Of a stretch of 64,000 nucleotides of DNA, positions 27,506 through 61,079 are shown in pieces (the stretch's first letter is position 1; every line of letters begins with the position of its first letter). Made by a program: the position numbers and the translations under genes. The notes under the pieces were generated by a model that saw only the letters and a list, made by a program, of their open reading frames with translations, was not told the origin of the DNA and did no database searches. The stretch is from Mytilus galloprovincialis (taxonomy: Eukaryota): positions 70,038,935 to 70,102,934 of the forward strand of contig NC_134847.1 of the NCBI RefSeq assembly GCF_965363235.1. The letters run 5' to 3'.

Positions 27506-29136
27506 ATGAATGAATTTATGTTTGCAGATGTTTTATCAGAATTACCTGATAGTCTTGTGAAAGAGATGTTGAAAAAGAAAAAAAATGATGATGTATGTCT
27601 TGATGAAGGAGTTATATCAGAAGTACCTATGTTTCCTGTAATAGATGAAAGTGAAATGGGGACTTCTACAGAAATCAATGATGATGAAAAGGAGAATGAA
27701 AAAAATGATGAAATTGTATTCGAGAGTTTGGACCTTTCGGAAATCACCAATAGTAGTTATTGTAGTTGTTCTATAAATAAACAATATGAAGACAAATATT
27801 TGTACAAAGAAGACCAAATAGTTTACTTGCCTAATACCGTAGAAGCAACAATAAACAAAGACAAAAAGACTGATATCCATAAAGAAATTTCTGTCAACAG
27901 TAGTTCTTTAAAAAGCTCTAAGGTAAATGAAATGTATGATTCTTCGGCTTTGTCCATGATTGACTTACCACCTTTGTCAATGGATGACTTTGAAGAAAAA
28001 CAAGACGGTAGTTTCACTAAGAATGGTAGTTTTTTACGGTTGTGTACTGAAACATCTATCAACAGGGTTTCAGAGGTAGACACTTATGTTTCACATGTAG
28101 GTCATTGCACAGGTCACTATGAGGATAATTCTATCAGAGAAAACAAGGTATGGTGGGTTCCTAATTATCAAATCATACCAATTACAAAGAATGATGCGGT
28201 ATACAGTTCTGATAAATTATCACAAGCTTTTGACAGTAACAAGAGTGAAAAAAGCAACATTTCAACTATAAGTTCCGGATGCTGTAGTATAATCAGTAAT
28301 AAACTGGATGTTCATATTTGTCAATATAAATGTCTATCCTCAAACGTACATTTTGAAGAGTCTGTTTTTTCAAACAAGGGCGTAGTTGATCTACAAAAAA
28401 GGCAAGCAAATAAATCAATAAATAAAAAATATTCTAATGGAGAAGAATATTTACAGAAATGTAGAAAACATCATGATATTGCTAAGATTGTAAAAACCAC
28501 TTTGAAAGAGTTAGCGATGAAAAGGGTAACTGAAATAACTTTAACATCAAAATGTAATCGAAAGAAAAAAAAGCGAAGGATATCAAGAAGAAAACTTCGA
28601 CGCATTATATTTTCTAATCGAATTAAATCATCAAGGTCTCTTCAAATACAAGTAAGACCTGTTGAACATTCACCTCAGCTAATAACAACTTCTAGTGAAG
28701 CAAACACTAGTCATCCAAATCACAATGGAACAATTTTGAGTCTACAACAACAAATTTCAGTTCAAAGTGTATTACCAGTTCACAATATGTCAAATTATAT
28801 CAGAACTGATGGGTCATCTGATTTGGTCACCGGGTCATCATTCACAACGCCATCTGTGACATCTTCAAGTTCTTGGACTAGCTACCTCAATAGTTTGTCG
28901 ATGGGATATGAATACAGTGTTGAGAAAAAGATGCAGTACGAATGGCTGAGAGTACAATCTTACCAGAATTTTCCAGCTACCTGCCATGCTAGTCCCTTAC
29001 GTTTAGCTAGAGCTGGTTTCTTCAGTACTGGTATTATTGATGAGGTTTTATGTTTCAGCTGTGGGGTCAAATACAAAAACTGGAAGAAAAAGGATAATCC
29101 TATTGAAGTTCACCATAGAATATCGCCAGATTGTCG
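27506..29136 (+). CDS. IAP-family exon 1. A 544-aa ORF with a long acidic, Ser-rich N-terminal region, a basic NLS-like stretch (KCNRKKKKRRISRRKLRRI) and a C-terminal BIR domain complete through its last zinc-ligand Cys.
   Basis: ..YEWLRVQSYQNFPATCHASPLRLARAGFFSTGIIDEVLCFSCGVKYKNWKKKDNPIEVHHRISPDC matches the BIR signature R.x.T/S-F-x-x-W/F-P...AGF.Y.G..D.V.CF.C-x16-H-x6-C. The ORF ends at the donor TGTCG|gtaaat, phase 2, and TAA follows if the donor is not used. Confidence 0.8.
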
Positions 29137-30178: not shown

Positions 30179-30285
30179 GATGGTAAATGGTAGAGAAACA
30201 ACGAATATCCCAATTATTTCAGTAATCAACAGAGAAGCTGCAGACAATCCTCAGCAAGAGGCAAGCCAAAGACTAGTGATTGATA
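30179..30285 (+). CDS. Candidate IAP exon 2 (107 nt) encoding the post-Cys tail of BIR1 (R-MVNGRETTNIPIISVINREAADNPQQEASQRLVID)
   Basis: Acceptor tttttgatag|G, donor GATA|gtatgt. The entry phase matches the exon 1 donor and the exit phase matches the acceptor at 35990. The peptide resembles the tail of BIR2 (FVRQNKGHRFVEIITKRQAEM) in the same relative position. Confidence 0.4.
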
Positions 30286-33260: not shown

Positions 33261-35989
33261 AACATACAATGTAATACCATTATAAAAAAAATTGTTGTCT
33301 TATAAAAATTGTCACTTGACCAACAGAAAAACCTTACATTTTGTGTACGTCCAATGCATTATTGGACTTGATTTAAGCAAATGACCCTTAGATTCAAGTC
33401 CCTAATATCACTTACTATTGTCAGCGGACCAGATAATCTATCCCACTTCATACAACAATCCTGTTTCCATTGTGGCATCAGTTATTTTGTATTGTGAAGT
33501 CAAAATTTTACAGCAACCTGGGTGATGTCCAGTCATGGCAGACAAATAGCAAAAAGATGTTTAGGAAAACATGACCTAAAACCTCCTTCATATAAGACAC
33601 AAATACATGGAAACCGAATCTTGCTGCTTTAAAATAAGGGTAAAAAGATGAAGTCTTTTTAACTTAAATAAAGGGTGGGGGGTCATTACCATAAGAACAA
33701 CTTTTCTAAAAGATGATTCCACATATATTCATTGTATTTTCAATGAATTATAAATATTGAAGTGTATCTCAGGCATCTGAGAAAAGACTATTGAATTGAA
33801 TCGGTACATCTATACATTTTTGTTCAGGGTCAATCGACATCAATTTGTTGGCCTCTCTAATAGACGTCCAATTTTTAGCTTCTCGAATTGACGTCAGGTT
33901 TATGGCCATATGAAAAGATCCAAACGCCGAGATATTTGGCCTGACATGCTGCATTACATATGGAAATGTCCAAAACAAATTAACAACACTGCAAATTGGG
34001 ACTGAAAAGATTTATACATGTTATACCAACTGAAACTTCGACTGTCTGAGAGAGATGTAAAGACAGTTCTAGGTTAATATGTTCACAACAAATGAAAACT
34101 TTAAATTTGTTGAAAAATATCTAACGAAGTCCAAATTATAATACTCTCAAAAAAGTTAGCTTTACATCTTTATTTTGTCCATTGTTGAAGACTGATTGCT
34201 GCCCTCTATGTGTCCTATATGTCGTTTTGTTTTCTTTGTCATTGGGTCCTGATTGACATATACTCGCATGTAATTTATCAATGTGAATATAAATGAAATT
34301 CGTTAACGTAGAACGACCTTACCCCCTCCCCGTCCTTTTCTAGATAACAATAAGGATGGGGTGGGGGTGTACCTTCGAGTGTATCTCCTTATTTCTTGAT
34401 AGTACTACTGTGATAGTACTATCTACTGTGATAGTAGAGTTTGTTATATCTTTACAACGTCATTACTAGAATTTCAAACTTCTATGACTATACATGTACA
34501 TGTATATATTCGTTTTGTTATTGGTAAATTCGATATGGCAGTATGGTATTTGCGGAATTCCAACGTAAATGCCACGAGTCAATTGAGATATAAAGTATCA
34601 TAAAATTGAGCTGTGTTCATTAAGAAACACATACAAATATACGTTTATCATACAACTCAAAATGTAAACAACCCCTAAAATACAATGTTATATGGAATCG
34701 TCCAACATACATTTATCATACGACTCGAAATGTAAACAACCCCTAAAATACAATGTTATAGAGAATCGTCCATAGCAGATGAAAGACATAGAATTCACGA
34801 ATACACGTCCAAATAATTATGACGTCTTGGAAGGCTATTTCTTCCTGTCGAAGTAAGGCGTCAAAGAAAAAAAATATAATAGCCTTTCAAGATGTCATAA
34901 TTATTTGGACTATCAGTTGGTATGACTGACATTAGATGAAATAAAAATAGATATGTCAGCTAATAAAATATTCAATAGTTTTTTGTTGGTTGAAATGTCC
35001 TGAAATGTGATGGGTTTATGCAGCACATGTATCCCTTTACCAGTTTACTGGCTTCAGTTTGAAAAATAGACTACAGTAGAGACTAAATGGGGACTAAATG
35101 TGTACAAACCAGACATCCAACTATGTTGTAGAAAATGTGATCATCAATTTATCAAAAATATATACACAGAGAACAATATATTTCACAATACATATGCATT
35201 AATCCAAATTTACATCCATTCGTACGGTCTCAATAGAAGAATTTCCCGCGGAAATATCATGTGATATAAACATGGAATTTTCCACACCGATACAGGTGAA
35301 ATACGTAGAATAACAATTGTGGACACAGCAATGAGATCAGATATAAGACCCTCATGAGCTCGGTGTAAAGTAAAAAAAATGTAAAAATCAATTATTAAAT
35401 AAATTTGTTCGATTAACCTTGAAGTGAAGACTAATAAAAATTTGCGTGTATAGAGTGAGCCCCCTAAATTAAATAATACTGTGTTCTTGACGACTTCCCA
35501 CCGCGATGATCGATAGAAAAGATATTTTACTATATAGTATGTTAAATAATAAAAAAATGAACCTTATACTTTCAGACACGATTTTAAGAGAAAACATTCA
35601 ATTCTCTTTTATATATTTTTACATATTTCAGACTATTAATCTTTCAGATAACAAATATCGTGCAAAGTTAGTAATCTCATAGCAACAGTCATAGGAATAC
35701 ATAATCTTTTGTTTTTGCTTAATAGATAATACAAATTATAGATAATACAAATTGTCTGATAGTATTATGTTTTTGTAGTCAAAATCGAATTTAATGATTA
35801 TGTTAACAAATAATTAATTAATAATAAAATTCAAATTAAGCTTCAGACTGAAGACAGATTTAACTATTTGGTTAAATTGAATTATTTCTTTTATTTCCTG
35901 CAATTTTACCTATTATTACTTCAACAAATAAAACTAACTTCCTTGATATAATTCTTATTCTTACTTTGATTTAGATCTCCTGATATCAG

Positions 35990-36531
35990 GAATACATCAA
36001 AATGAAGATGTTAGCATTCAGACAACTGAAGGAGCCACAAACAGATCATTGACAAGAGAGGACATACAAATCTCCAATGATGCAGACACTACTTCTCAGT
36101 CAGTAAATCGAACACAGCAACCTCATATAGTTCACCATGCATTGAGACCATCAGTAGTTGACAGAAACCATTCTGTATTAGATGGAGAACAGAACAGACC
36201 TGCACACAGAGACATTGGTGAGGATTTGGGTATAACATTAGAAAGACCAATGTATCCAGCTTATGCTCAACTGAGTGTTAGGGTCCGTACATTCCAGGGC
36301 TGGCCTGGATACTTAGATCAGGCCCCTAGAGATATGGCACTGGCAGGATTCTTCTATGCTGGCTACAATGACTATTGTAGATGCTTCTTTTGTGGAGGAG
36401 GCTTACGTGACTGGGATGCTGGCGATGATCCTTGGGTAGAACATGCAAGATGGTTTTCTAAGTGTTCATTTGTTAGACAAAACAAGGGCCATAGATTTGT
36501 GGAAATAATTACAAAGAGACAGGCTGAAATG
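35990..36531 (+). CDS. IAP exon (module A, copy 1), 542 nt, with an intact BIR domain
   Basis: Acceptor ctcctgatatcag|GA, phase 1. Donor GCTGAAATG|gtaataac, phase 0. The ORF 36049-36549 lies within it. ..RVRTFQGWPGYLDQAPRDMALAGFFYAGYNDYCRCFFCGGGLRDWDAGDDPWVEHARWFSKCSFV has C-x2-C-x16-H-x6-C all present. Confidence 0.8.
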
Positions 36532-38791
36532 GTAATAACAATAAATTAAATCTAATCATAAAAGGTGATACTTTTATCCCACATTGAACATGAAATATGC
36601 ATCATGTTTTTTATTTAATTCCAAACTTGGGAATTCAGTCTTTTTCAGCAAAATTTAATAAAAACAGTACCTATTTCGTGTAATCGATTCCTCCATCAGA
36701 TTTCAACCCTATACATTGAACCTTCACACATATATTGCACAAGTTTTGAAGTTTTGTAGTTTTTATGGAATTGTTTGAGTGTTGCTATATTTTTCTGAAT
36801 GTAAGAAAATAGTCATATTTCTGCAAAGTCTACAAATCAAAATGGTACCAATTGTGTATAACAGAATGATTGCATTTATTTTATATTATTGTAGCTGTGC
36901 ATTTCTATTTTGTAATTATTTGATCAAGTAAGATGAGCTGGTTCATAGCATTCAACAGTAATGTCATTATTACATGTTTGTGTCACAAAATGACTGAATG
37001 AAATAGCTGAACAAATATCAATGTGACAACATTTACAGAAAATGAGTTCATAAAGGAAAAAAAAGAAGAAGAAAAATGATATGATTGATTTGCATTATTC
37101 ACTGTGAGGGTTAACAGTTGCTTTAACATTTAAAAAATGTTATCGGGCCTTAATATATTTCAAGTTATTTAATTTGTCATTGGTTATCTTCTTTTACAAT
37201 TTAAAGTACAAAGTTATTTCCCCTCAACTTTGCAAAATTTGTGTTGGAACAACATTATTTTTGTAGCAAAGTTAATTTTTTATTCAAATCGTGAGCTTGA
37301 AAAAAAAAATTTGTCTAAGTTTTCAACATGAACCAAAGCGCTTTGAAAATACATAAATATTTGGAATGTAACTTGCGGTCATGATGGTTTCACTGAAACT
37401 TTTATGTCTGAGAAATGCAGGCTATCATTTTGGTTAAACGAAAGACTGACTTATCTTTAAAAGAGCTTATAGTGTACTCTTATAAAGCGATTCCCATTGC
37501 CTCACATTGGGGCTTTGAAAGATATCCATTTATGATGAGATTGTGACCTTTATTTTTTAATATGTATGCTCTTTTTTCCGTTTGAATGGTTTTACACTAG
37601 TCATTTTTTGAGCCCCTTTGAAGCTTGCTGTTCGTGTGAGCCAATGCTCCATGTTGAAAACTGTACTTTGACCTATAATGGTTTACTTTTACAAATTGTG
37701 ACTTGAGCAACATGAGCAACACGACGAGCGCCACGTGTGGATCACCTGAAATCCTCCATAGTTTTTGGTAGGGTCCATGTTGTTGTTGTACCCCTATTTG
37801 TGACAGTTTGTTCACTCATCATTGTCAATTTAAGGGAAATTGATGCGACTGTCGTACAAGTGGTTTATTTAGGTGTTATACCACCATTTATTTCCCCTAT
37901 TAGTCTTTGTCTCCCCTTATTTAACTGGTGTATATGCTTTACTATCCACGTAACCTCAACTATACACAATATTCTATAGGAAACCCAAATAAAAACAATA
38001 ATGGTGTTGTGAAATACCCAAGACAAATGTTAATGAAACAGAATTGTTTTACTGCAATAAAATATAAGGATTAGTTACCTACAACTGTCAAATTAAAGGG
38101 AATATTTTTTTACCTATGTTCGTATAAAACCGGATGTGACGTACCATGCTTTAGTGGTATTACACCTTTGGCGCTATACAACCAGATTCAATCCACCATC
38201 TTCTACATTTGAAAATGTATGTCAGGTATGATAGTTGTTGTCCATTCGTTTGATATATTTTATCATTTGATTTTGAAATTTGATGAGGGACTTTCCGTTT
38301 TGAATTTTCCTCGGAGTTCAGTATTGTTGTGATTTTATATTTTGGATGGAAAGTTGTCTCATTGGACATTTTGAAAAATTAATAACATCCACCATTGTTA
38401 TAGCAAAACATAGAATTTTGGGTCTAACAAATTATAAAAGCAATTAATTTGTTTAAGCATTTATTTTTATGATGAATATGATATCTCGAAGAAATAAGTT
38501 TAAATAAACTTTTGAAAAGAGAAAAGGCCTAACCTCTCCATTTGACAAGTGACAATCCATTGAAAAATATAGTTTATGTCACTTTGATTAATACTTTTCA
38601 AATACTTAGGGAAAACACTAAAACAATATCCATCTGCTAATTATTATCTCCCATGAAACTGGTGGATGTATCGTTCCTCGTACAGTCAGAATGTTGGCAG
38701 GCGACAAGTTTTAATCATAATGTGACTACCAGAATATGAAGTCTTACAGGTTCAATATTGATATATTTAAAACTATCATTGTCAATTTCAG

Positions 38792-38918
38792 GAGGCATCT
38801 AATAATTCATCAGATATTACTGAGAATCACACAGCAGTGTCAAATTATGGCGCAATCGAAGATAGAATCTACATAAACTCAGAAGAAACAACACCAACAC
38901 CAATGACCACTCAATCAG
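38792..38918 (+). CDS. IAP linker exon (module B, copy 1), 127 nt: EASNNSSDITENHTAVSNYGAIEDRIYINSEETTPTPMTTQS
   Basis: Acceptor tgtcaatttcag|GAG, phase 0. Donor CAATCAG|gtagat, exits with 1 base. Identical copy at 42653-42779. The diverged but ORF-preserving copy at 45677-45803 supports coding status. Confidence 0.6.
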
Positions 38919-39636
38919 GTAGATTACTAAATAACCCATTTTGTTGTAACAAATAAACAATAAATGTCATGGGTAAGTTCTACAAATTAAATAAGCAAGA
39001 AGCAATCATGGGCTATTAAGAATTCCACTGTGAAATCCCTGTGTTTGATTGGTGTTGAATGGGAACGACATTTTGCCTTTCAACAGGCCACCTACAGACC
39101 ACTCAAAGTGTTCTTGGGTCAGCACATTGAAACCGACGGGAGCTGGTTGTAATTTATAAAATATTGAAAGAGAGAAGGAAAAAAAAAGTTCACATATGAA
39201 AATGAATTCATCATACAAATGAAATGACAAGCGATTTCACCCTTAGAGCAATGGTATATATTTGATCCCACAGAGGAAAGAAATGCATTGTGTTACCAAA
39301 ATATATTCTCTTGAATAAATTACACATGTGTGTCAGCACAGTAGTTTATTTGATGATATTGAACATGTTTTAATTCTTGCAATTGTTCCTTCATGTAATG
39401 TTCTTTTTTACAATCAGCATCCTAAAACGTAATTGTCTAGAGTGTTGAAATATTGTCAAACACGTGTTGCAGTGGTAACCTCTATATGTCATGCTAGTAT
39501 ATAGACGTAAATAAAGTCGGATAAAAACTAATAAAAATGTATACAACTTGTATACAAGTATAGGTTCTGTTAACAATTACTCAATTTTAACTCTAAATTT
39601 AAGATTTCCTGCAATTTACAATACATCAAAATGAAG

Positions 39637-40016
39637 ATGTAAGTATTCAGACAACTGAAGGAGCCATAAACAGATCATTCACTAGAGAAGACATACAAAT
39701 CTCCAATGATGCAGACACTACTTCTCAGTCATTAAATCGAACACAGCAACCTCATGTAGTTCACCATGCAATGAGACCATCAGTAGTTGACAGAAACCGT
39801 TCTGTTTTAGATGGAGAACAGAACAGAACTGAAGATAAAAGCAAGGCAGAGGATTTGGGTATCAGTTTAGAAACACCAAAATGTCAAGATTATGCTCAGC
39901 TGAATGACAGGGTCAGTACATTTCAATGTTGGCCTGGATATTTAGACCAGGCACCAAGGTTTTTTTTATATACAGGATACAATGATCATAAAGGCGATAC
40001 TTTTATATCATATCAA
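39637..40016 (+). pseudogene. Degenerate BIR-like exon (module A*, copy 2). It keeps RVSTFQCWPGYLDQAPR..FFLYTGYND but lacks the CxxC/His/Cys zinc ligands. An open frame runs to a GTATGT donor, so it could be a pseudo-exon or an alternative exon.
   Basis: Relative to copy 1 it has a 15-bp in-frame deletion (DMALA). After YND, ~100 bp are replaced by ~330 bp that includes atcataaaggcgatacttttat, which resembles the intron just 3' of exon A. The candidate acceptor GAAG|AT and donor TATCAA|gtatgt keep phases 1 and 0. The 3' BIR remnant at 40299-40396 is left in an incompatible phase (gctgaatg|gt). Confidence 0.5.
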
Positions 40017-42652
40017 GTATGTTGAAAGATGCCTAATGTTGTTTTTTTTAAATGACCAATATTTTGAATCAAATGAAATTACACATCAGAGTTTAAAAAA
40101 AACTTAAAAAATACATATTAACCAAATATCATTCGTACAAGGATTCTACACTTGTATGAGAGTTTTAAAAAAGCAAGGTTAAATGTCTTTGTTTAAATTA
40201 ATTCTAAAGCAGTTTCATCTGCAGCTGCTGGTAATGGAGGTTTAAGTTGTATAAAATTGACTAAAATGTCAAATGTGTCCAAGTTTCTTTCCTTGGGTAG
40301 AACATGCAAGATGGTTTTCAAAATGTCCATTTGTAAGACAAAACAGAGGTCATAGATTTGTGGAAACAATTACAAAGAGACAGGCTGAATGGTAATAACA
40401 ATAAATTAAATCTAATCATAAAAGGTGATACTTTTATCCCACATTGAGCATGAAATATGCATCATGTTTTTTTTTATTTCCAAACTTGGGAATTCAGTCT
40501 TTTTCAGCAAAATTTAATAAAAACAGTACCTATTTCGTGTAATCGATTCCTCCATCAGATTTCAACCCTATACATTGAACCTTCACACATATATTGGACA
40601 AGTTTTGAAGTTTTGTAGTTTTTTATGGAATTGTTTGAGAGTTGCTATATTTTTCTGAATGTAAGAAAATAGTCATATTTCTGCAAAGTCTATAAATCAA
40701 AATGGTACCAATTGTGTACAAAAGAATGATTGCATTTATTTTATATTATTGAAGCTGTGCATTTCTATTTTGTAATTATTTGATCAAGTAAGATGATCTG
40801 GTTCATAGCATTCAACAGTAATTTCATTATTACATGTTTGTGTCACAAAATGACTGAATGAAATAGCTGAACAAATATCAATGTGACAACATTTACAGAA
40901 AATGAGTTCATAAAGGAAAAAAAAAGAAGAAGAAAAATGATATGATTGATTTGCATTATTCACTGTGAGGGTTAACAGTTGCTTTAACATTTAAAAAATG
41001 TTATCGGGCCTTAATATATTTCAAGTTATTTAATTTGTCATTGGTTATCTTCTTTTACAATTTAAAGTACAAAGTTATTTCCCCTCAACTTTGCAAAATT
41101 TGTGTTGGAACAACATTATTTTTGTAGCAAAGTTAATTTTTTATTCAAATCGTGAGCTTGAAAAAAAAATTTTGTCTAAGTTTTCAACATGAACCAAAGC
41201 GCTTTGAAAATACATAAATATTTGGAATGTAACTTGCGGTCATGATGGTTTCACTGAAACTTTTATGTCTGAGAAATGCAGGCTATCATTTTGGTTAAAC
41301 GAAAGACTGACTTATCTTTAAAAGAGCTTATAGTGTACTCTTATAAAGCGATTCCCATTGCCTCACATTGGGGCTTTGAAAGATATCCATTTATGATGAG
41401 ATTGTGACCTTTATTTTTTAATATGTATGCTCTTTTTTCCGTTTGAATGGTTTTACACTAGTCATTTTTTGAGCCCCTTTGAAGCTTGCTGTTCGTGTGA
41501 GCCAATGCTCCATGTTGAAAACTGTACTTTGACCTATAATGGTTTACTTTTACAAATTGTGACTTGAGCAACATGAGCAACACGACGAGCGCCACGTGTG
41601 GATCACCTGAAATCCTCCATAGTTTTTGGTAGGGTCCATGTTGTTGTTGTACCCCTATTTGTGACAGTTTGTTCACTCATCATTGTCAATTTAAGGGAAA
41701 TTGATGCGACTGTCGTACAAGTGGTTTATTTAGGTGTTATACCACCATTTATTTCCCCTATTAGTCTTTGTCTCCCCTTATTTAACTGGTGTATATGCTT
41801 TACTATCCACGTAACCTCAACTATACACAATATTCTATAGGAAACCCAAATAAAAACAATAATGGTGTTGTGAAATACCCAAGACAAATGTTAATGAAAC
41901 AGAAATGTTTTACTGCAATAAAATATAAGGATTAGTTACCTACAACTGTCAAATTAAAGGGAATATTTTATTACCTATGTTCGTATAAAACCGGATGTGA
42001 CGTACCATGCTTTAGTGGTATTACACCTTTGGCGCTATACAACCAGATTCAATCCACCATCTTCTACATTTGAAAATGTATGTCAGGTATGATAGTTGTT
42101 GTCCATTCGTTTGATATATTTTATCATTTGATTTTGAAATTTGATGAGGGACTTTCCGTTTTGAATTTTCCTCGGAGTTCAGTATTGTTGTGATTTTATA
42201 TTTTGGATTGAAAGTTGTCTCATTGGACATTTTGAAAAATTAATAACATCCACCATTGTTATAGCAAAACATAGAATTTTGGGTCTAACAAATTATAAAA
42301 GCAATTAATTTGTTTAAGCATTTATTTTTATGATGAATATGATATCTCGAAGAAATAAGTTTAAATAAACTTTTGAACAGAGAAAAGGCCTAACCTCTCC
42401 ATTTGACAAGTGACAATCCATTGAAAAATAAAGTTTATGTCACTTTGATTAATACTTTTCAAATACTTAGGGAAAACACTAAAACAATATCCATCTGCTA
42501 ATTGTTATCTCCCATGAAACTGGTGGATGTATCGTTCCTCGTACAGTCAGAATGTTGGCAGGCGACAAGTTTTAATCATAATGTGACTACCAGAATATGA
42601 AGTCTTACAGGTTCAATATTGATATATTTAAAACTATCATTGTCAATTTCAG

Positions 42653-42779
42653 GAGGCATCTAATAATTCATCAGATATTACTGAGAATCACACAGCAGTG
42701 TCAAATTATAGCGCAATCGAAGATAGAATCTACATAAACTCAGAAGAAACAACACCAACACCAATGACCACTCAATCAG
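42653..42779 (+). CDS. Linker exon B, copy 2, identical to 38792-38918
   Basis: Lies at offset 3861 from copy 1 with the same splice sites. Confidence 0.4.
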
Positions 42780-43497
42780 GTAGATTACTAAATAACCCAT
42801 TTTGTTGTAACAAATAAACAATAAATGTCATGGGTAAGTTCTACAAATTAAATAAGCAAGAAGCAATCATGGGCTATTAAGAATTCCACTGTGAAATCCC
42901 TGTGTTTGATTGGTGTTGAATGGGAAACGACATTTTGCCTTTCAACAGGCCACCTACAGACCAGTTAAAGTGTTCTTGGGTCAGCACATTGAAACCGACG
43001 GGATCTGGTTGTAATTTATAAAATATTGAAAGAGAGAAGGAAAAAAAAAGTTCACATATGAAAATGAATTCATCATACAAATAAAATGACAAGCGATTTC
43101 ACCCTTAGAGCAATGGTATATATTTGATCCCACAGAGGAAAGAAATGCATTGTGTTACCAAAATATATTCTCTTGAATAAATTACACATGTGTGTCAGCA
43201 CAGTAGTTTATTTGATGATATTGAACATGTTTTAATTCTTGCAATTGTTCCTTCATGTAGTGTTCTTTTTACAATCAGCATCCTAAAACGTAATTGTCTA
43301 GAGTGTTGAATTATCGTCAAACACGTGTTGCAGTGGTAACCTCTATATGTCATGCTAGTATATAGACGTAAATAAAGTCGGATAAAAACTAATAAAAATG
43401 TATACAACTTGTACACAAGTATAGGTTCTGTTAACAATTACTCAATTTTAACTCTAAATTTAAGATTTCCTGCAATTAACAATACATCAAAATGAAG

Positions 43498-43877
43498 ATG
43501 TAAGTATTCAGACAACTGAAGGAGCCATAAACAGATCATTCACTAGAGAAGACATACAAATCTCCAATGATGCAGACACTACTTCTCAGTCATTAAATCG
43601 AACACAGCAACCTCATGTAGTTCACCATGCAATGAGACCATCAGTAGTTGACAGAAACCGTTCTGTTTTAGATGGAGAACAGAACAGAACTGAAGATAAA
43701 AGCAAGGCAGAGGATTTGGGTATCAGTTTAGAAACACCAAAATGTCAAGATTATGCTCAGCTGAATGACAGGGTCAGTACATTTCAATGTTGGCCTGGAT
43801 ATTTAGACCAGGCACCAAGGTTTTTTTTATATACAGGATACAATGATCATAAAGGCGATACTTTTATATCATGTTAA
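43498..43877 (+). pseudogene. Degenerate BIR-like exon (module A*, copy 3). It has the same lesion as copy 2, plus an in-frame TAA just before the former donor (..TFISC*).
   Basis: Copy 2 reads tat caa|gtatgt, and here it reads tgt taa gtatgt. This is the ORF 43632-43877. Confidence 0.5.
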
Positions 43878-45676
43878 GTATGTTGAAAGATGCCTAATGT
43901 TGTTTTTTTTAAATGACCAATATTTTGAATCAAATGAAATTACACATCAGAGTTTAAAAAAAACTTAAAAAATACATATTAACCAAATATCATTCGTACA
44001 AGGATTCTACACTTGTATGAGAGTTTTAAAAAAGCAAGGTTAAATGTCTTTGTTTAAATTAATTCTAAAGCAGTTTCATCTGCAGCTGATGATAATGGAG
44101 GTTTAAGTTGTATAAAATTGACTAAAATGTCAAATGTGTCCAAGTTTCTTTCCTTGCTAGCAGATGGTTTGGTGGTAAGGCAGTGGGTACTTATATTCCA
44201 TTATTCCTACAGTTTTTATCCCTGAGATTTGAAACGTTACATATGTATTGCACTTATGATGAAGTTGTGTACCTGTAATTATTATTAATTGTTTGGGGAA
44301 TTTTACTTCATATTCTCAGAATTGAGAGCTTAGTAACTTTCAGCAAAATTAACAAACAAATGGTAACCAGTTTTGTGTAATCAACTTCTCTCATAGTTTT
44401 TAATGCGGCAAAATATATTCTAAATTATTGAATATGTAATAAATTATCTTTTTTTTTACAATTTAAATTACTTAGTAATGACCTCTAAATTATGCCAATT
44501 TTTTGTTGGAACAAATTTTTTTTTTAGCAATGTAGCTAAGCTAATTGTTTATCCAATCCTTGATCTTGAAAAGGTTTTCTAAATGAACAAAAGTGCTTAC
44601 AATTATATACAAATTTGAATTGCAACTTGTGATCATAGGTTTCCTTGAGCTTTAAGGTATTTGAAATACCCACAATTGAAGTGCATTGAAGTCATCAGCC
44701 AACAAAGGCTGACTTTAGAATTTATCGTGTACTCCATAACACGTTTTCTTTTGCCTCACGTTGGGGCTGTTAAAATATATATGATCAAGATTGATAGTCT
44801 AATTATAGCAAAAATGAACATTGTCCTTTAATGATATACTTAGCTCAGGTTTTGGGATTTGTGTGGAATGTTCGGACTCCTTAGAGTTTTTTCATACGAT
44901 ACAAGGTAAAATATTTTGCCCCATAACACCGATTTATTATTTCATATAAGACTTAATAGCTCATAAAAGGTCATCTAACAAAATTTCAGCACATTCTTGA
45001 TTTTCTTTCTTTTTATTTGAGACCCAAATAATACCAATACAAATGAAAGGTAAAAGTCCAAGTCAGCCTTTTCCCGTGATATTGTATACATCACATATCT
45101 CGAAAAGGAGTTCCATGACCTATCAATATTTTTAGCTTATTTTGATCCTTAACTAATACTCTTCTAGCTTAAAGCATCAATTTTAAATTCTTAATTTATT
45201 TAATTTTACCAAACTACATCCTCAATTTTCGATAATGAAAGTTAATTGTGTTCTTTTTGTATTAAAATCATGAGTTGTCAATGTAATCATGTCATTACAC
45301 CAAACAACCTGCTGCAAACATTATATGACATAAGTAGTTTGTTTGAAGCATCATTTTGAAAAAAAAATCAATAATTACCACTATTGTAATTTAAAAGTGT
45401 AAATTTGAGTCTAACAAATTTATAACAGCAAAGAAAGTTGTTAACCATTTATTTTATGATGAATACGATAAGTGGATAACTAACCTTTAAAAAGAGAGAT
45501 GACACAACCTCTCCATTTGTTATGTGACAATCCATTCAAAATAGAAACTGGAGGATGTATTGTTCATGATACAGTCAGAATCTTGTCAGGTGCATACACA
45601 TTTTAAACACAATTGCCAACAGAAGCTATTAGCAGTTCCATATTGACATGATAAGAAATATCATTGTTTATTTCAG

Positions 45677-45803
45677 CAAGCACCTAATTACTCATCAGAT
45701 ATTTCTGAGAACCAAGCAGCAGTGTCAAGTTATAGTGAAATAGAAGAAAGAACCCAAATAAACTCACAAGAAACATCACCAACAACAATGGTCACTCAAT
45801 CAG
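45677..45803 (+). CDS. Linker exon B, copy 3: QAPNYSSDISENQAAVSSYSEIEERTQINSQETSPTTMVTQS. It is ~25% diverged, yet the same length (127 nt) with frame and both splice sites conserved.
   Basis: Acceptor ttgtttatttcag|CAA, donor CAATCAG|gtaggt. No stop codon. Confidence 0.5.
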
Positions 45804-47559
45804 GTAGGTTGTAATATCGTATCATCTTTTTGTGGTAACAAATAACAATCGGTGTCATGGGTAGGTTCTACAAATAAAGTTATCAGGAACAAATAATGGG
45901 CTATTTAGATTGACACTGTTGAATTTGGTGTGTTTGATTAATGTTGAATAGGAACAGACATTTTGCTTTCCAACATGCCTCAAACAGTGCACTCAAAGTG
46001 TTAATAAGATGACATGGGGTCACCACATTGAAATTTCCATACACGTTATAAAAAAGAAGATGTGGTAGGATTGCCAATTAGACAACTGTCCACAAGAGAC
46101 CGCTTTTAACATTAATATTTAGACGGGAGCTAGCTGCATATTTATGTGTATATTGTATTGATAAACAAACATGAAGAAAGAAAGTTCACATAAACATAAT
46201 ATAAAACATAATTCATAACACAGAAGAAATGACAAGCGATTTCACCATTAGAGCAATTGAATACATTGGATTAAACAGAGGAATGAAGTGCAGTGTTTTA
46301 CCAAATTATACTATACTATTGAATAAATTACACATATATGTGTCTGTACAGAAGTTTTATATGTTGATGATATTGAGCATGTTTTAATTCTTGACATTTT
46401 CCTTCAAGTTCAGTTTTTTTCACAATGAGCATATTAAAAAATCTGAAATAAATAAATTGCAATTCTTATGGTCTGTTGTTTTGTGGTTTAGAAGGCACTT
46501 TCAAAGGATTGTGGCTTTTTTTTTTTATCTTTCACTTAAATAGTATATAAAGGAATAATTCACAACATGTCTCTATTAACACTGCATATTAATCAAATTT
46601 AATGAGAATATTTCTATAGTTATGCTGGGGCAAAAGAAAATTTGAGATATATATCCATAGAGTAACAACATTACAAGTTCCATGAAATTTGGTGGTTGTA
46701 CTCTCCTGTATAGCAGGTTATGCAAATAGTATTTTTTAAAGTAATAAGCCTGTACGTTAATAGCTAAATGAAAGTTAAAGTAAAATAATATCTTTAAAAT
46801 TTATCTCGACAATTATGCTTTCTCAGCAACCCTTAAGTTAAACTGTATTATGACTGCGATTTTCTGTATAGGAAACCTAAAAATTGAGGCAACAGAAATT
46901 TTGTCGGTGTCGTCGGCGGCGTCCACAAATATTCACTTTGTGGTTAAAGTTTTTGAAATTTTAATAACTTTCTTGAATATCCTGGATTTCTACCAAACTT
47001 GATCAGAAGCTTGTTTATGTTCATAAGATAGTATCCAGGAGTAAATTTTGTAAAATAAAATTCTGTTTTTTCCGTATTTTACTTATAAATGGACTTAGTT
47101 CTTTTCTGCCAGGAAACATTACATTAACTCTGTGGTTAAAGTTTTTAAAATCTTAATAACTTTCTTAAACTATCCTGGAATTGTACGAAACTTGTCCAGA
47201 AGCTTGTTTATAATCAGAAGATAGTATCCAGAAGTTAATTAGGTAAAAATAAAATTCCGTTTTTCCCGTATTTTCTTACTTTCATACAGTCTGCAGTCAA
47301 AGTTTTTCAAACATTTTAAGATTCATAAACTAACCTTGATTTTTACCAAACTTGGACAGAAGCTTCTGACATTCAAAAGATAGTATTAGTATTAAGAGGA
47401 AAAAATTTATTGATTTTTTTCATAATTTTTGTTGAGTATGTGATTAGCAGCAAAAGTAAGCCAGATACTGGGTTCCGCGGAACCCTTACAAATTTTTTAA
47501 CATATTTCTCCGGTGCTTATTAAGTAGAACAAATTCACACTTAAGATATCACATGTAAA

Positions 47560-47850
47560 CAGTGAAAAATTACTTGGCATCATAATCGATGATTGTCTTT
47601 CATGGAATCAACAAATAAACAAAGTATGTACTGTTATTAGTACTAGACTAGGTTTACTAAATCGATTGAAGCATTATATTCCACAAAAAGGTTTATGTTT
47701 TTTTATAATGGATAATTATGTACTTCCTCTTTTTGATTATTGTTGTACAATATGGACTGAAACATGTAATCTAAATATGGAAAAAATGTTAAAATTGCAA
47801 AAAAAGAGCAGCCAGAATCATTCTTTATCATACTTTATTTGGCCTTTTTA
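47560..47850 (+). mobile_element. Fragment of a non-LTR (CR1/Jockey/RTE-like) ORF2 C-terminal region
   Basis: Translates to ..LGIIIDDCLSWNQQINKVCTVISTRLGLLNRLKHYIPQKGLCFFIMDNYVLPLFDYCCTIWTETCNLNMEKMLKLQKKAARII (cf. LGV.ID..L.W..HI, ..P.LEYC..VW, LE.VQRRAAR.I). A frameshift is present and the fragment stops abruptly at the hammerhead-bearing repeat. Confidence 0.55.
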
Positions 47851-47960: not shown

Positions 47961-49904
47961 CATATGACACACCATCAAAACCTTTATTTAAACAATTAGG
48001 ATGGTTATCTTTTTATTTGAACAGGAATACTTTTGCAAAGAACTATACCGGAATATTGAAATGTTTTCTTCATTAAATTTGTTCTCGGACGTGGTATGAA
48101 AAGACAATTATTGTCCCAAACTTTTAGTTCTTTATTAAATAAATGTCTACGATAATCATGTGCAAGACTAATTACGCACTTATACATTAATACTCCTTTG
48201 TGATATGTGATTCTAATTTGAAAGGATAACCATCTGACATTAACAAAATATGTTTATGAACCTATTCTGTATGTTTTTCGCCTTTTGTTTTGCATAAAAG
48301 TATGTATGTAAATGTATATATATTATATTATTGAATATTTTGATTTATTCAGAGGGCATCAGAGGAGATTAGTATTGTACCAACTGATTTTACCCTCTTT
48401 AAATAAAAGTATTTACTATTATTATTACTTTTATTACTTTCTCACTGGCTCAACAGAAATAAGTAGAAATTTGGCAGCATTTTTTATACTACGTTAGAAA
48501 AGGGGTGAAATTCTTTCTGATATATGCGCTATTTCCTCTTGTCTTGATTTTATTCCCTATGTCACTCCTATATCAAGCGAAGTTTAACTCTTTTTAAAGA
48601 CACATTAACTTTTTATTCCTAAATATTTCCTGTATACAATTACCTGAGTCACACAAGAACAGTCTTAGGGTCCTTGTTTACAAAATGAGCAATCTATCCA
48701 GGGGTAATAAAAGGTCCACTTTTTACCTTGGATTTACAATTTGTGTCAAAAGTATATATATATAATGTGAGAAGCATCTAACAGTTCTAAGCCTTAGTTT
48801 AAAAAAGTAAAATCACAAAAATACTGAACTTAGTGGAAAATCAATTCGGAAAGTCCATAATCACATGGCAAAATCAAATAACAAAACGCATCAAAAACGA
48901 ATGGACAAGAACTGTCATATTCCTGACTTGGTACAGGCATTTTCAAATGTAGAAAATGGTGGATTAAACCTGGTTCTATAGCGCTAACCCTCTCACTTTA
49001 ATGACAATCTCATCAAATTCCGTTATATTTACATTGATGCGTTAACTAAACAGACACAATAAATAAAATAGTAAAAATATGGGTACATCAGTCATCATCG
49101 TATAACAATTTTAACTCTTTATAGTTCCTATGACCCGAATTCGGGTCATAAGCACTTTTTTGCGCAAAATTTTGATTCAAACCTTAAGTTCTTTGCCATT
49201 TGACTATCAACAGATATCACCAAGGGCTTAAATTAACCTGTGAGTTTCAGCTTCACGTTAAAATGCCAGTTGTGTATTTTAGGCTTGATCTTTGTGGCAA
49301 AATAAAGCAATTAAGCTATCATCGTTTTTAAAAAAATCAGTTAAAATTTAACAGAAAAAACTTTAGAATTGTGGAAATCTCGAATTATGAAAATATTGTG
49401 TTTGGTTTCTATAAACCGCAAAAATCGGTCTATTACGGATTTTTTTCTTTCAGTTTTGTGTTGAGCTTTATAAAATGTAGGTTCATAAAGTTATACTTTT
49501 ATTAATTTCTACGAAAAACGAATACAAACAGTGAACATTGTCAACATGTCAATAATTTTCAGCAACTATTTCTTAGAATTTCTGCCCATATCAGTAAAAA
49601 CGTGCATATTGTGGTTCCAGAGGTTTAAATGTAGTAATATAAATAGTATAAATGAAATGCATTTCTTACTACTTGTGTTACTTGTTTTTGAATTATTATC
49701 ATAATTACCCCCCCCCCCCTTTTTTCCCCTTTCCACTATTTTTACCTGGTTTACACACCATCTCACATTTTGTGTTCTTTTAGAGATGTTAAAAAATGCA
49801 TTTTTGACGTTTTTCTGAATATCTAATTATAATTTAATATTTGAATGTAAAAGGTCAATTTAAAAATAAATTTTACAAATAACATTGAAAATAAGTAGGA
49901 ATTT

Positions 49905-52860: not shown

Positions 52861-53051
52861 AAGGCAGTTCACTCAAAATGCAAAAAACGAAACAGGGCAA
52901 ATGCAGGACCTGTGATGCAAATAATGTACCTGTAGCATTTTTACCATGTGGACATATATACTGCTGTAACGACTGTACATCTGCAATGCTAAAATGTCCT
53001 ATGTGCAAAGTTGATATTAAACAAGCATTAAAAAGGTACTTCCATACTTGA
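52861..53051 (+). CDS. IAP terminal exon encoding a C3HC4 RING finger (..KCRTCDANNVPVAFLPCGHIYCCNDCTSAMLKCPMCKVDIKQALKRYFHT*)
   Basis: Acceptor cttgtgttttgtag|AA, phase 1. The spacing C-x2-C-x11-C-x-H-x3-C-x2-C-x6-C-x2-C and the short C-terminal tail match the IAP RING (cf. C.ICMD....VF.PCGHL..C..CA.....CP.CR..I...). Stop at 53049-53051. Confidence 0.8.
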
Positions 53052-56400: not shown

Positions 56401-56639
56401 ACCATATATCTATATTCAATCAGAGTAAATTGATAAGGTATATATTTCTGTCAGTACGAGTTGTTGTATACACTGTGACCTTATTTGAATAGTTTAGTTT
56501 TAGCGTTTCCGATTAAAGATCAGTTGAGCTTTTGTCATTACTTTGTGTCCGCTGTCTGTCATTGTTCGTTTACCTTTTACAAAATCTTCTCCTCTGAAAT
56601 TGCTAGGCTAAATTTATTCAAACTTCGCCACAATCTTTT

Positions 56640-58470
56640 TGGGGGTATTTAGCTTTAAAAATGTGTCTGATGACCCCACCTAGCAACCAAGTTGTTGAGA
56701 ATATTGCAATATTCCTACTGTTCATATATGTCAGAGGGCCTGTGGGAGATATCCCTTATATGTCAAATATATTCCAAGATTTAAATTCTCTATTGGATAC
56801 TAATAAATCAAAAATAAATCTATTAAATAACATGCTTGTTGATTTAGAAAAAGAGAACATGTCAAATGTATTAGACTATAAAGTGACTAATCAGGAAATA
56901 GTTAAAACATTTACCAATTTAAAACCTGGAAAGGCATGTGGTCTGGACCTGATACTAAATAACATGTAAATACAAGACTTTCTAAACATTTAGATGAGAG
57001 AAATATTTTGATTGATTGCCAAGCTGGCTTCAGAAATAAATTAAGGACACCAGATCACATGTTTATCCTCAAATGCTTTATTGATAAATATACTTATTGT
57101 AAAATAAGTAAATTTTATGCTTGTTTTTTTTTAGCTTTTAATTCTGTGATACACCCAGGTATCCTCAAGGCTCAAGTCAGACATTGGAGGGAAATTTTAC
57201 CAGTGAATTAAACACATGTATACACTTAATAATCAAAGAGTAAAAGTTGATAACAAACTAGGTCCATGTTTTAACTCTTATATTGGGGTTAGACATGGGG
57301 ATATTTTAAGCCCTGTTCTTTTTAATCTATTCATAAATGATCTACCTAACTGTTTACTAAATGGTCCTGATAGTGTAAAACTTAGTCGCATAGACTGTCT
57401 TATGTATGCAGATGATGTCATTGTATTTTCTGATTCTGCTGATGGACTTCAAAAGCGCTTGAAGGCATTGGAATCATTCTGTGATACCTCGTGTCTAAAT
57501 GTTAACTTAAAAAAACTAAAGTTTTACTATTTGATAAAAGTGGACGCCACATAAAAGAACCATTCTATTTTAAAGATGAATTAATTGAAACTGTTTTCAA
57601 ATATAAATACCTTGGAGTTATATTCCAGTCAAGTGGCCTATTTAATTATGCAAAAAAATACATATTTAATAAATCTTTAAAAGCTTCATATAAACGTAAT
57701 AGATGTTTATCTGGCTCAGATGCTAGTATTAAAACAAATTTACATCTGTTTGACCATACCTTTAAACCTATTATTTTGTATGGCTCAGAGATATGGGGAA
57801 TGTTTAAAACCAACTCTGCTTCTTGTATAAAAGATGTTACAAATGTACTTGAAAAAATATACCAGAATAATGTTGCTGATAAAATGAACTTAAAGTTCTG
57901 TAAGCATATTTTAGGCTTAAATAACAAAAGTACAAATGTTGCTGTACAATCAGAATAAGGCAGATTTCCTATATATTTTAATATTGTTATATCTATGATA
58001 AGCTATCTGCATAGATTACATCATTGTAACTCAAATTTGTTGAAAGAAGCGTGTTTGTGTAACAAAGATGTGCATGAAAATAACACTATGACATGGTATT
58101 CCTCTGTTAAATTTATTTTACAAAAGCTTGAATTGAAAGAAACATATAGTATTGATTATTCAATAAATAGATTAAAACAACTTATTATTAAAAAGTTAAA
58201 GACATTATTTTTAAAAGCATGGTTCAATGATAAAGATAAAGTTAATGGAAAGCTCGATATATATTTTTCTCATAAAAGTAATTTCCAAATGGAAAAATAT
58301 CTTGATATTCAAAGTTTTCAATCAAGACAAATTTTATGTAAATTTCGCTTAAGTGCCCACCAATTACGAGTAGAAAAAGAGCGACATAAGAACAAACCTA
58401 TAGAAAGGTCACAGAGGACTTGCAATTTTTGTTCTCATAATGATATATTGAAGATGAGTTTCATTTTTTA
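56640..58470 (+). mobile_element. Degenerate non-LTR retrotransposon ORF2 (reverse transcriptase) remnant with frameshifts
   Basis: Successive frames give KPGKACGLDLI (56661-56969), DCQAGFRNKLRTPDHMFIL (57008-57211), GVRHGDILSPVLFNLFINDL...LMYADDVIVFSDS (57216-57554) and a C-terminal CNFCSHND Cys motif (57995-58471). These are canonical LINE RT blocks in the correct order. Confidence 0.7.
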
Positions 58471-61079
58471 ATAAACTGTCCATTGTATAACAAATGTCGA
58501 GAATCATTGTTTGCACAAGCTCATGAGCACTGTCAAAATTTTAACAACTGAGACTGCAAATCAAATTTTTTTATGGTTAATGACCACTGAAGATAAACAT
58601 ATACTTAAAAAGTTAAGTATTTTTCTTATCCAGAGTTTTGAATTGAGATCCACAAATTATGTTAATGGCTAAATCTCTTTAAGTTTATCCATACATATAT
58701 TTTGAATTCAAAAATTAAATTTAAATACACATTTCTTTATCTATGTGTATGCATATTTCATCTATTAATATGTAAATGCTTATATATGCATTAAGAAACT
58801 GCAGTCAAATCTCTAAGGTGCTTATCATATTCTTGCAATTGTGAAAGAAATATTATTATATACATAAATATCTAGTAATTGGTTGATCTTGGTTGCTGTG
58901 TGTACATGGGAGAAAAATACCTTTATATCTAATCAGTTGCGGCTGCATTTTATTTTTATGCAGCTCAAAACACCATATCTGTTTAAAGGGGAATAATCCT
59001 TACATAAATTGATTGTCTCCCATATTTCTTTATCTTCCATGTGCATGCAATAACTGTTCAGTGTTCTTTTCATTTTATTATTTCATTGTTATAACACAAA
59101 TCATTGTAATTATTATATGAAATTTAAAACCCGCAAAGGTCCATAATTGGATTAATAAAGTAGTCTTATTCTTATACTTATAATGCATCGAACTGATTGC
59201 ATTAAGGTTTATAATAATTTTGTTTAATTTATACCTTATATAATTAATGTTGATTTTATTGTAGGAACTGCCCAATCTGCTTTCACTGTTAAGGAGGAGC
59301 GACTTTGATGATATTAGAAGAGTATGGTCAGAGATCATTGGGCATAGGGGAAGAAGAGATTTTTATGGCTCAGATGCAGATTTGGTTATGGATCCTTTCA
59401 GCAGCCTGCTTCTTAATCATTACAGATTCAACTGTACCAATTTTAATTGTCCTACAAATGAGAGATCATTTGATATGCCTGGATTGACTTTACCACAGTA
59501 AATATAAAGCTCATTTTTGTCCCAATGGTTCAACTGAACTCCTCTCATCACTTTAACGTTAACTTTTACATAAATCTTCTCCTCTGAAACTACTGGATCA
59601 ACATTAAGGTTTCTAGATTAATACATGTCCGATCACCCCGCCTGACAGCAAACATGGCCAACATTCCTGAAAATAGAATATAGGGGAAAATGCAGATTTT
59701 GGATTATATCTCTGAAAATTTGCAGACGAATCAGGCAACCCGTTGTTGGGTTTCTGTCCCTAAATTGATAATTTTATGGAAATGTTTTAAGTTTTTAGAT
59801 ACTAGTATTATTTTTAATTTTATCATAGATATTTAGGAGTAATTGCCATTTATAGTCTTTTTTAACAAATTTTCGTAAACTTTTGTAATCTTTCACAAAA
59901 ATCCTCTCTACTAGAACTACTTTTAAAATATAATTCGCCACAATCATCATTTAGGTATCTAGTTTTTAAAAAATGTGTCTGATAACCCCGCCTTCTAAGT
60001 AGCATGACTAACATTGCTGAATATGCAAGTTTTGTCCATTATTTTGTATAGCATTATAAAGAGAGAAAATTCGACAGGAGCAATATATTTAGAATGCTGT
60101 GCTCTACCAATTGTTCATACATGTCAAAACTGTCAGATGACTTTTTATAGAAATAATGGCCCTTATATGACAAATTTCATTTTTTTTTCAATTGTGCCTA
60201 CTATATTTAAAACATAATAGATAAAAGATCAGCCAGAAAAAATCTATAATCTACGAAATCGTCATTCGACTCCTGTATAGAGTTATAGCCTTTTGATAAT
60301 GATTTTGGCCATTTTTTGCGTTCTGTCTTATATCATAAAATGATTAGCAAAACAAATACTAGGAGGAAGAAAATATTGACGTTTTTGACCTTTAAAGACC
60401 TCTTTAATTTGAGATTTTGCCACATATGATTGAAAACTATAATGGATAAAGATACACTTTGATTCAAAATTATCAGCAAATCAAGATCTACTAACAAGCC
60501 TTATTTGACAATATAGTTAAGTAGACTGTCACTCTTTTAATGATTACACTTAAATGAGGATTTGTTTTATCCTCTTTTGTGATTTAAGCAAAAACTTAAG
60601 AATGCAGAGACTACACTAAAAAAAAGTCAAATCACAAAAATACTGAACTCAGAGGAAAATCAATTCGGAAAGTCCATAATCACATGGCAAAATCAAATAA
60701 CAAAACGCATCAAAAACGAATGGACAAGAACTGTCATATTCCTGACTTGGTACAGGCATTTTCAAATGTAGAAAATGGTGGATTGAACCTGGTTTTATAG
60801 CTAGCTAAACCTCTCACTTGTATGACAGTCTCATCAAATTCCATTATATAGTCACCGATGCGTGAACAAAACAAACAGACATAATAGGTAAAAATGTCAA
60901 AAATAGGGGTACAGCAGTCAACATTGTGTTATCATCTTAATCACTATAAAAACAACAAATGTAACGAAGAAGCACAAAAAGGCATACATCAAATTAACAT
61001 CCTCATTTTGATTATATAATACGATTATATTTGTCTATGTAAAATGCACCCATCAAGGAAGGAGGGTATGGGTACTGGT

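Follow-up and report, generated by a model that had tools for sequence, protein, structure and literature searches.

We describe here, in a 64,000-nt stretch of Mytilus galloprovincialis DNA (NCBI RefSeq assembly GCF_965363235.1, contig NC_134847.1, positions 70,038,935 to 70,102,934 of the forward strand; hereafter the window, with coordinates counted from its first letter), an IAP gene in which a pair of exons, one specifying a linker and a BIR domain (exon A) and one a further linker (exon B), occurs three times. In our view the locus is probably a BIR-BIR-RING IAP gene of the bivalve type, within which tandem duplication took place twice in succession and one domain died. A preliminary description of the same DNA, made from its letters, had proposed an old array A-B-A*-B', in which A* is a decayed A, followed by a very recent duplication of the interval from B to A*. 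This history is supported by our analyses, with corrections to some of its particulars. The features referred to throughout are collected in Table 1.

The predicted gene and its recurring exon pair

The window is AT-rich and eukaryotic in character (GC content about 31 %) and contains zero N. Six-frame analysis of its sequence revealed two intact BIR zinc signatures of the form CX2C-X16-H-X6-C, located at 29051–29134 in exon E1 and at 36382–36465 in exon A1, with Pfam PF00653 scores of 63.4 and 78.6 bits, respectively (cut-off 22.9 bits); the RING exon (52861–53051) matched Pfam zf-C3HC4_3 with 43.3 bits. Seventy-seven matches were obtained in the protein collection, including BIR(+RING) proteins of Mytilus, Magallana, Tegillarca and Pinctada that were 53–68 % identical over the BIR. 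A protein from the same species was not found in this collection, the best identity being 53–67 %. The presence of a zinc-ligand BIR, a C-terminal RING in the same modelled gene and homology to bivalve IAPs places the gene in the IAP/BIRC family.

In the predicted model, E1-E2-A1-B-RING, all splice phases fit, and an uninterrupted open reading frame (ORF) of 870 aa results with any single one of the three B exons, whilst the frame shifts when two Bs are joined in a row or when none is included. Splicing of E1 directly to A1 was considered and rejected, as the phases clash (2 versus 1); the mismatch is resolved by a conserved 107-nt exon, E2 (30179–30285), which restores the reading frame between them. 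An orthologous gene lies on a 20-kb ENA contig of a related animal (L001), in which the order of the exons is the same (BIR1 exon end, small exon, BIR2 exon, RING exon), as are their phases. The end of exon E1 (ISPDCR|gt) is conserved in this contig, E2 is conserved at contig positions 8699–8803 with the core motif RMVNGRET (tblastx), and the two halves of A1 show 81–84 % protein identity to their orthologue. The earlier proposal that the repeated exons lie inside one gene is thus supported by a predicted model in which the phases agree, which includes a conserved small exon as well as the RING exon, and to which the L001 locus corresponds. Neither older copies of the module nor a UBA exon were found between 46.4 and 52.8 kb or elsewhere at E ≤ 5. 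As the exons are predicted here, it is probable that only E1-E2-A1-(one B)-RING functionally reads through, the extra copies being intronic remnants or, at most, alternative exons.

Two observations concern the individual exons of this gene and its orthologue. Ahead of BIR1, E1 specifies about 480 residues of low complexity, rich in Lys and Ser (27506–28950) and without a Pfam match, and its counterpart in L001 is called at 284 aa only. Furthermore, the orthologous BIR2 of L001 is split at FFYAG|GYND by a canonical phase-1 GT..AG intron of ~1.1 kb (10343–11440 of the contig), which contains a locally repeated element present in about six copies in the 20 kb. Neither A1 nor A* possesses this intron (corresponding site 36363–36364), the presence of which therefore differs between the two species. 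A number of database proteins that end after GFFYAG (P0018, P0021, P0024 and others) were considered as having the same truncated BIR in another species; the contig shows instead that their translation runs on into the GT..AG intron, beyond which, after 1.1 kb, the rest of the BIR is found. Proteins such as P0018 and P0024 hence appear truncated because an intron of the L001 type splits their BIR2.

Exon A begins at 35975, 39604 and 43465 and exon B at 38792, 42653 and 45677, in agreement with the tandem triplication of mosaic identity that had been described, most features of which lie no more than about 10 nt from the positions given for them. Self-alignment of the region revealed divergence to be uneven among the units, with 98.84 % identity for the recent pair; the block at 38367–39427 recurs for a third time, at 45352–46439 in copy 3, with 72–80 % only. 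The 5' part of exon A (35970–36329) recurs without gaps at 39599 and 43460 (85.6–85.8 % identity). B1 and B2, previously called identical, are nearly so and differ at one position (38849, G/A; Gly/Ser). The third B differs at 23 of 126 positions, and its flank, which had been reported as diverged, is 71–82 % identical on its two sides.

Homology between the two old units begins at about 35957/43445 and ends at 39427/46439. Moreover, the collinearity of copies 1 and 3 extends unbroken over the boundary at 44157 (43846 corresponding to 36555, 44194 to 36681, 44412 to 37152, 45352 to 38367, 45544 to 38655 and 46122 to 39135). The ancestral order was therefore A-B-A*-B', which supports the two-step history, and the source of the recent event was 36429–40289, from within the 3' end of A1 to the intron behind A*. 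One A and one B together comprise 684 nt (A, 557 nt, phase 1 to 0; B, 127 nt, phase 0 to 1) with phase 1 on both sides, and the predicted donor of E2 and acceptor of the RING exon are both phase 1 as well, such that the pair reads as a symmetric exon module. As its length is divisible by 3 and its phases are 1-1, the module could be duplicated in frame. The old event would have duplicated in tandem a segment of ~3.6 kb carrying both exons, and the copy would have been spliceable in frame, giving a three-BIR protein that may actually have been used.

Probable decay of the extra BIR exon

As the preliminary description had stated, the BIR of A1 is intact and A2 and A3 are free of zinc ligands; neither of the latter gave a Pfam hit or displayed a zinc-ligand signature, and neither qualifies as a functional BIR. 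The lesion is common to A2 and A3, again as claimed, and both are copies of one duplicated A*. One part of it, a deletion of 15 nt from the DMALAG region that keeps the frame, had been recognized correctly. The other had been read as a replacement of ~330 nt, and this reading did not stand. A segment of ~185 nt that is present in A1 is missing from both copies, comprising all four zinc-ligand codons, the end of the exon, the GT donor and, from the start of the intron, ~29 nt. The sequence at 43846–43964 aligns with the intron 3' of A1 (36555–36665) at 68 % identity (E = 5e-9, low-stringency alignment). In addition, A3 gave an alignment score of 40.5 against A1 from which 36379–36559 had been removed, compared with 7.0 against undeleted A1. 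Replacement by foreign DNA was rejected on these grounds, the ~330 nt being a diverged homologue of the intron that follows A1. From the intron homology and the score of the deletion model it follows that a deletion took place here, by which the stump of the exon was joined to its own downstream intron. In the proposed sequence of events, these two deletions would have brought about the death of the domain.

Prior to this loss, the extra BIR appears to have been maintained. In its N-terminal part (36276–36328), A1 and A* differ at eight of 11 synonymous sites but at just three of the 40 non-synonymous ones (omega 0.03; Fisher P = 3.5e-5), and the motif RV(R/S)TFQ(G/C)WPGYLDQAPR is retained in both. 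Zero indels are present in the 355 nt of exon A1/A*, and the aligned introns are 45–80 % identical and gap-rich. From these patterns we infer that the extra BIR functioned, under selection, through much of the period following the old duplication; the ~185-nt deletion would have come late, though before the recent duplication. The comparison of the two exons also revealed a mosaic: the initial 224 nt hold 17 differences (~92 % identity), and the 131 nt that follow hold 33 (75 %); the break is at 36199, and its maximum chi-square was reached in 1 of 2000 permutations. Because the linker evolves almost neutrally (omega 0.79), the similarity of the 5' parts of A1 and A* is best explained by a conversion of intermediate age. 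The extra BIR would thus have been under purifying selection for long, and the first ~225 nt of A and A* would later have been homogenized by gene conversion.

An alternative to decay is that the gene makes use of its extra copies. In that case, B1, B2 and B3 would be mutually exclusive linker exons, and A2 would be exonized via the possible donor CAA|GTATGT (40016/40017), yielding isoforms with a BIR-less insert or without BIR2; this would imply adaptive diversification of isoforms. All three B copies retain an acceptor, a donor, the length of 127 nt and an open frame, and frame incompatibility enforces the inclusion of exactly one. Both E1-E2-A1-B1-A2-B2-RING and E1-E2-A2-B2-RING read through, the 5' part of A* is without indel or stop codon, and splice variants differing in domain content are known to come from oyster IAP genes (PMC8917759). 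However, the open frame beyond the deletion point of A2 extends over 21 codons and could be due to chance (a probability roughly estimated at about 0.2), a stop codon occupies the spot in A3 that is equivalent to the possible donor of A2, the omega of ~1 for exon B speaks against use, and the copies are too young (about 1 %) for their intactness to be informative. We therefore hold such use of the copies to be unlikely, and favour their reading as remnants of decay.

With regard to splicing at these copies, two of the few differences between A2 and A3 lie 2 nt apart, at 40012–40014 versus 43873–43875, A2 reading TAT CAA|GTATGT (open, phase 0) and A3 TGT TAA|GTATGT (stop). It is these differences, immediately ahead of GTATGT, that determine if in-frame splicing of the dead exon is feasible. 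A cryptic splice from the A2 stump to the orphan BIR fragment that lies beyond it (AAG|GT at 39958 to GGGTAG|AA at 40305) was also considered and rejected, as, translated by hand, it leaves the frame and meets a stop codon.

The recent duplication and its divergent patch

Self-BLAST aligned 36429–40295 head to tail with 40290–44156 (98.84 % over 3870 columns, E = 0), and global alignment of the two units, U1 and U2, identified 45 differences, of which 39 were substitutions and six were indels of 1 nt each. The junction between these head-to-tail copies is in non-homologous sequence, the flanks at the three boundaries being unrelated apart from a common TCCTTG; the chance of a microhomology of at least 6 nt at a random junction is about 0.001–0.003. 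Identity had been reported to switch abruptly at 36438, 40299 and 44160. It does switch abruptly, but 4–9 nt earlier, at 36429–36434, 40290–40295 and 44151–44156. Furthermore, the recent repeat recurs after 3861 nt, compared with a spacing of 3629 nt for the old copies; the left breakpoint sits in exon sequence of A1 that is deleted from A*, and the right breakpoint in an insertion specific to copy 3. Judging from these features, microhomology-mediated end-joining or a template switch would be the best fit for the recent duplication. The event would have been a non-homologous tandem duplication of 3861 nt, mediated by TCCTTG, through which the gene gained another copy of B and of the dead A*, as well as an orphan 3' fragment of the BIR exon. 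This fragment (40290–40391) shows 91 % identity to residues 153–185 of A1 (tblastn) and carries a 1-nt deletion immediately ahead of the donor.

Three modules could also result from unequal crossing-over (non-allelic homologous recombination) of the older A/A* repeats, with concerted evolution homogenizing copies 1 and 2 or copies 2 and 3. Direct repeats of 3.6 kb pre-existed as a substrate for such an exchange, and part of exon A has been homogenized. The breakpoints, however, are not at homologous positions, the left one lying in sequence that A* does not possess and the right one in the insertion of copy 3, with only 6 nt in common at the junction, and the new period is not equal to the old. 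The anatomy of the junction therefore excludes an origin of the recent duplication through unequal crossing-over of the old repeats, and this route to three modules is extremely improbable.

The 3861-nt repeat might alternatively represent two alleles of a single-copy segment that were assembled head to tail, in which case the real gene would be A-B-A*-B', with two modules. Haplotig duplications are known from bivalve assemblies, and have been pruned from oyster IAP sets (PMC8917759). The divergence of ~1.2 % is, moreover, very uneven along the repeat (8.7 %, 2.5 %, 0.1 % and ~1 %), like allelic variation, and the window holds another kb-scale tandem array of ~99 % identity (9267–15717). On the other hand, the window is free of N and of gaps, which argues against a scaffolding join, and a non-homologous join via 6-nt microhomology is a signature of biological rearrangement, unlike an overlap-based mis-join. 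The differences between U1 and U2 are mostly substitutions (39/45) and not homopolymer noise, and the junction sequence must be carried by at least one read-supported molecule. We judge an assembly artefact to be improbable, and a genuine tandem duplication to be the better account.

Next to the junction, differences between the two units are concentrated in a patch in the 3' part of the BIR exon, which holds nine of the 45 in 69 nt where 0.8 would be expected, a cluster reached in 1 of 20000 random placements. Divergence is 8.7 % in the 103-nt exon part and 0.96 % elsewhere, consistent with the identities of ~91 % and ~99 % that had been given for the end of the exon and the intron, respectively. 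The density of differences falls with distance from the junction, from 8.7 % (103 nt) to 2.5 % (525 nt) and 0.1 % (987 nt). The patch is sharply bounded, as in an ectopic gene conversion tract, and its haplotype at 40320–40367 reads TCAAAATGTCCATTTGTAAGACAAAACAGAGGTCAT...ACAATT. Seven codons are changed, four of them silently and the others from S to P, K to R and I to T; by comparison with the L001 orthologue, A2 has the ancestral state at three of the nine sites and A1 at three others, the remaining three being uninformative. Gene conversion or a breakpoint inside the exon had both been offered as explanations for this region. A breakpoint within exon A1 is confirmed, at 36429, and the neighbouring patch also looks imported from a functional BIR exon. 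The pattern suggests selection-filtered sequence from such an exon, introduced via ectopic conversion or a template switch, whilst decay of the orphan fragment fits it less well. Most likely, a paralogous functional BIR exon would have served as the template of the patch, through ectopic gene conversion or because the template was switched while the duplication formed.

The patch may instead be a mutation cluster left by the error-prone replication that made the duplication, whether break-induced or template-switching (of the microhomology-mediated break-induced replication, or MMBIR, type), with a density that decays from the breakpoint. Replicative mechanisms of copy-number variation in humans have been reported to be mutagenic near breakpoints. 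The patch begins 30 nt from the junction, the fall in density (8.7 % to 2.5 % to 0.1 %) is one-directional, and microhomology at the junction suits an origin of this kind. Replication errors would, however, be predicted to place all derived states in one copy, whereas the polarity relative to L001 is split evenly between A1 and A2 at the six informative sites, and the four silent changes among seven codons, plus one K to R, are unlike the prediction for random errors. This explanation is, in our view, rather unlikely, and import from a functional BIR exon is preferred. A broader combination, in which A2 would be an in-frame exon of 137 aa that derives partly from a former intron, the Bs would be mutually exclusive and the patch would stem from a template switch to a paralogous IAP gene, strikes us as quite unlikely from the sequence at hand. 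If true, the exonization of A2, the alternative Bs and the template switch would offer an exon-level view of an immune family that makes isoforms and exchanges sequence between paralogues.

Several points weigh against the history of two intragenic duplications and one domain death as set out above. The splice sites of the gene model were read from sequence and cross-species conservation. The modelled linker between BIR and RING is much shorter than in annotated relatives, and exons may be missing. A homologue of exon B was not detectable by similarity in L001, though the phases of L001 demand such an exon, and exon B is neutral (omega 1.04, B1 versus B3). The recent duplication rests on one assembly, and the divergence of U1 and U2, at about 1 % and uneven (2.5 % over the initial 525 nt of the intron, 0.1 % over the 987 nt beyond), would equally be expected of two alleles in a heterozygous bivalve. 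As for the patch, no other copy of the BIR 3' part that might have been its donor is present within the 64-kb window, and the silent-site bias is weak (P about 0.03–0.07).

Table 1. Features of the IAP locus, in window coordinates
Feature	Position	Strand	Evidence and remarks
Exon E1 (long N-terminal region and BIR1)	27506..29136	+	ORF; CX2C..H..C at 29051-29134; Pfam; predicted donor TGTCG|gtaaat, phase 2
Exon E2, 107 nt	30179..30285	+	Predicted acceptor phase 2, donor GATA|gtatgt phase 1; conserved with L001
Old duplication unit, copy 1 (A, intron, B and part of next intron)	35957..39427	+	Homology to copy 3
Exon A1 (linker and intact BIR2), 557 nt	35975..36531	+	Predicted acceptor tttag|AT phase 1, donor ATG|gtaata phase 0
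A1 segment missing from A2/A3, ~185 nt	36376..36560	+	Alignment offset jump from 7490 to 7291; deletion-model score
TCCTTG microhomology	36429..36434	+	Read from sequence; also at U1/U2 junction (40290-40295) and right breakpoint (44151-44156)
U1, first copy of recent 3861-nt tandem duplication	36429..40289	+	Self-BLAST, global alignment
High-divergence patch in 3' part of BIR exon	36459..36527	+	Twin at 40320-40387; 8 substitutions and 1-nt deletion
Exon B1 (linker), 127 nt	38792..38918	+	Predicted acceptor phase 0, donor CAG|gtagat phase 1
A2, exon-derived part of decayed A*	39604..39989	+	Acceptor, linker and BIR N-terminal motif RVSTFQCWP kept; ligands and original donor gone
A2 tail, intron-derived, fused by deletion	39990..40289	+	Possible new donor CAA|GTATGT at 40016/40017
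U2, second copy of recent 3861-nt tandem duplication	40290..44150	+	Self-BLAST, global alignment
Orphan 3' fragment of BIR exon	40290..40391	+	Made by recent duplication; encodes His and last Cys, without CX2C
Exon B2 (copy of B1, one difference)	42653..42779	+	Sequence comparison
Old duplication unit, copy 2 (A*, intron', B' and flank)	43447..46439	+	Collinear with 35957-39427
A3, second copy of decayed A*	43465..43850	+	TAA directly ahead of the GTATGT that could act as donor in A2
Exon B3 (B'), 127 nt	45677..45803	+	Splice sites intact, frame open; 62 % protein identity to B1
Last exon (RING finger and stop codon)	52861..53051	+	Predicted acceptor tgtag|AA phase 1; Pfam; acceptor phase identical in L001

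Repeats in the window and comparison with known systems

Upstream of the gene, a young tandem array at 9267–15717 consists of about five copies of a non-coding unit of ~1290 nt (98.5–98.9 % identity) and is bracketed by a 143-nt direct repeat (97 %; flanks 9084–9226 and 15988–16129). No ORF of at least 70 aa was detected in this array, which could represent a macrosatellite or else a mobile element that carries repeats. A 21-nt satellite (GAGATATCTTATTAACTAATA) occupies 19002–20332 (wider limits 18986–20472) with about 63 copies and 79 % matches, and shows self-matches in both orientations. Additionally, a dispersed repeat family of ~310 nt, probably SINE- or MITE-like (that is, resembling short interspersed nuclear or miniature inverted-repeat transposable elements), is present at 20893–21205, 48802–49114 (minus strand) and 60618–60940, its full copies being 85–93 % alike. 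Partial repeats of this family are found at 38168–38344 and 42029–42205, one in each recent duplication unit, and the family has a weak match in L001. Broken reverse-transcriptase ORFs downstream of the gene (56607–58468, plus strand; Pfam RVT_1 at 57207–57551) and an ORF resembling a long interspersed nuclear element within the B3-RING intron (47528–47848, plus strand) are retrotransposon fragments.

Tandem duplications mediated by microhomology arise through alternative end-joining, or through replication template switching of the fork stalling and template switching (FoSTeS) or MMBIR type. The recent duplication is like these in its head-to-tail copies, non-homologous breakpoints, 6-nt microhomology and cluster of changes at the junction. 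Unlike the random errors of FoSTeS/MMBIR-type replication, this cluster looks selection-filtered, silent and mixed in polarity; the mechanism is not distinguishable from sequence alone. The older duplication likewise resembles the general case of symmetric-phase exon duplication with frame-enforced mutually exclusive exons, in that the A+B pair has phases 1-1 over 684 nt and the Bs (0 to 1) cannot be consecutive. It differs from regulated mutually exclusive exons, as alternative use is here only putative and the peptides of B1 and B2 are nearly the same.

Bivalve IAP families number 54–169 genes per species, and their varied BIR counts have been attributed to domain duplication and loss, as inferred from protein architectures (PMC13159474). 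The locus described here may be set beside the duplication and loss of BIRs within IAPs of molluscs and insects (Mol Biol Evol 2026, msag078, PMC13159474; oyster, PMC8917759; hard clam, PMC7831173), since it concerns the same RING-containing, expanded bivalve family, the number of BIRs has changed within a gene, and the outcome is again an architecture of two BIRs and a RING. Whereas those studies draw on protein architectures and trees, the DNA intermediates are visible here, in the form of a duplicated exon pair, a BIR-killing deletion and a later, very young duplication that copied the dead exon. The term gene conversion does not occur in PMC13159474 or PMC8917759, the two IAP papers searched for it. 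In the IAP cluster of Bombus terrestris, a loss of ~300 bp turned a gene with two BIRs and a RING into one with a single BIR and a RING (PMC13159474), and there, as here, a short genomic deletion took a BIR out of a duplicated unit. In Bombus, however, duplication affected entire genes, and the one that was shortened still works as a variant, whereas in the mussel an exon pair was duplicated within one gene and the donor was lost as well, leaving a remnant and no new architecture.

The locus is a new, unusually legible instance of the known gain and loss of domains in IAPs, and not a new kind of system; knowledge of IAPs is unchanged by it. What it preserves are the steps at the level of DNA, from a phase-symmetric exon pair (gain) and a deletion fusing exon to intron (loss) to a microhomology junction and patches of sequence exchange. 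As such, it is useful as a worked example of this turnover, and as a caution for annotators that decayed A* and orphan B exons can yield wrong gene models.

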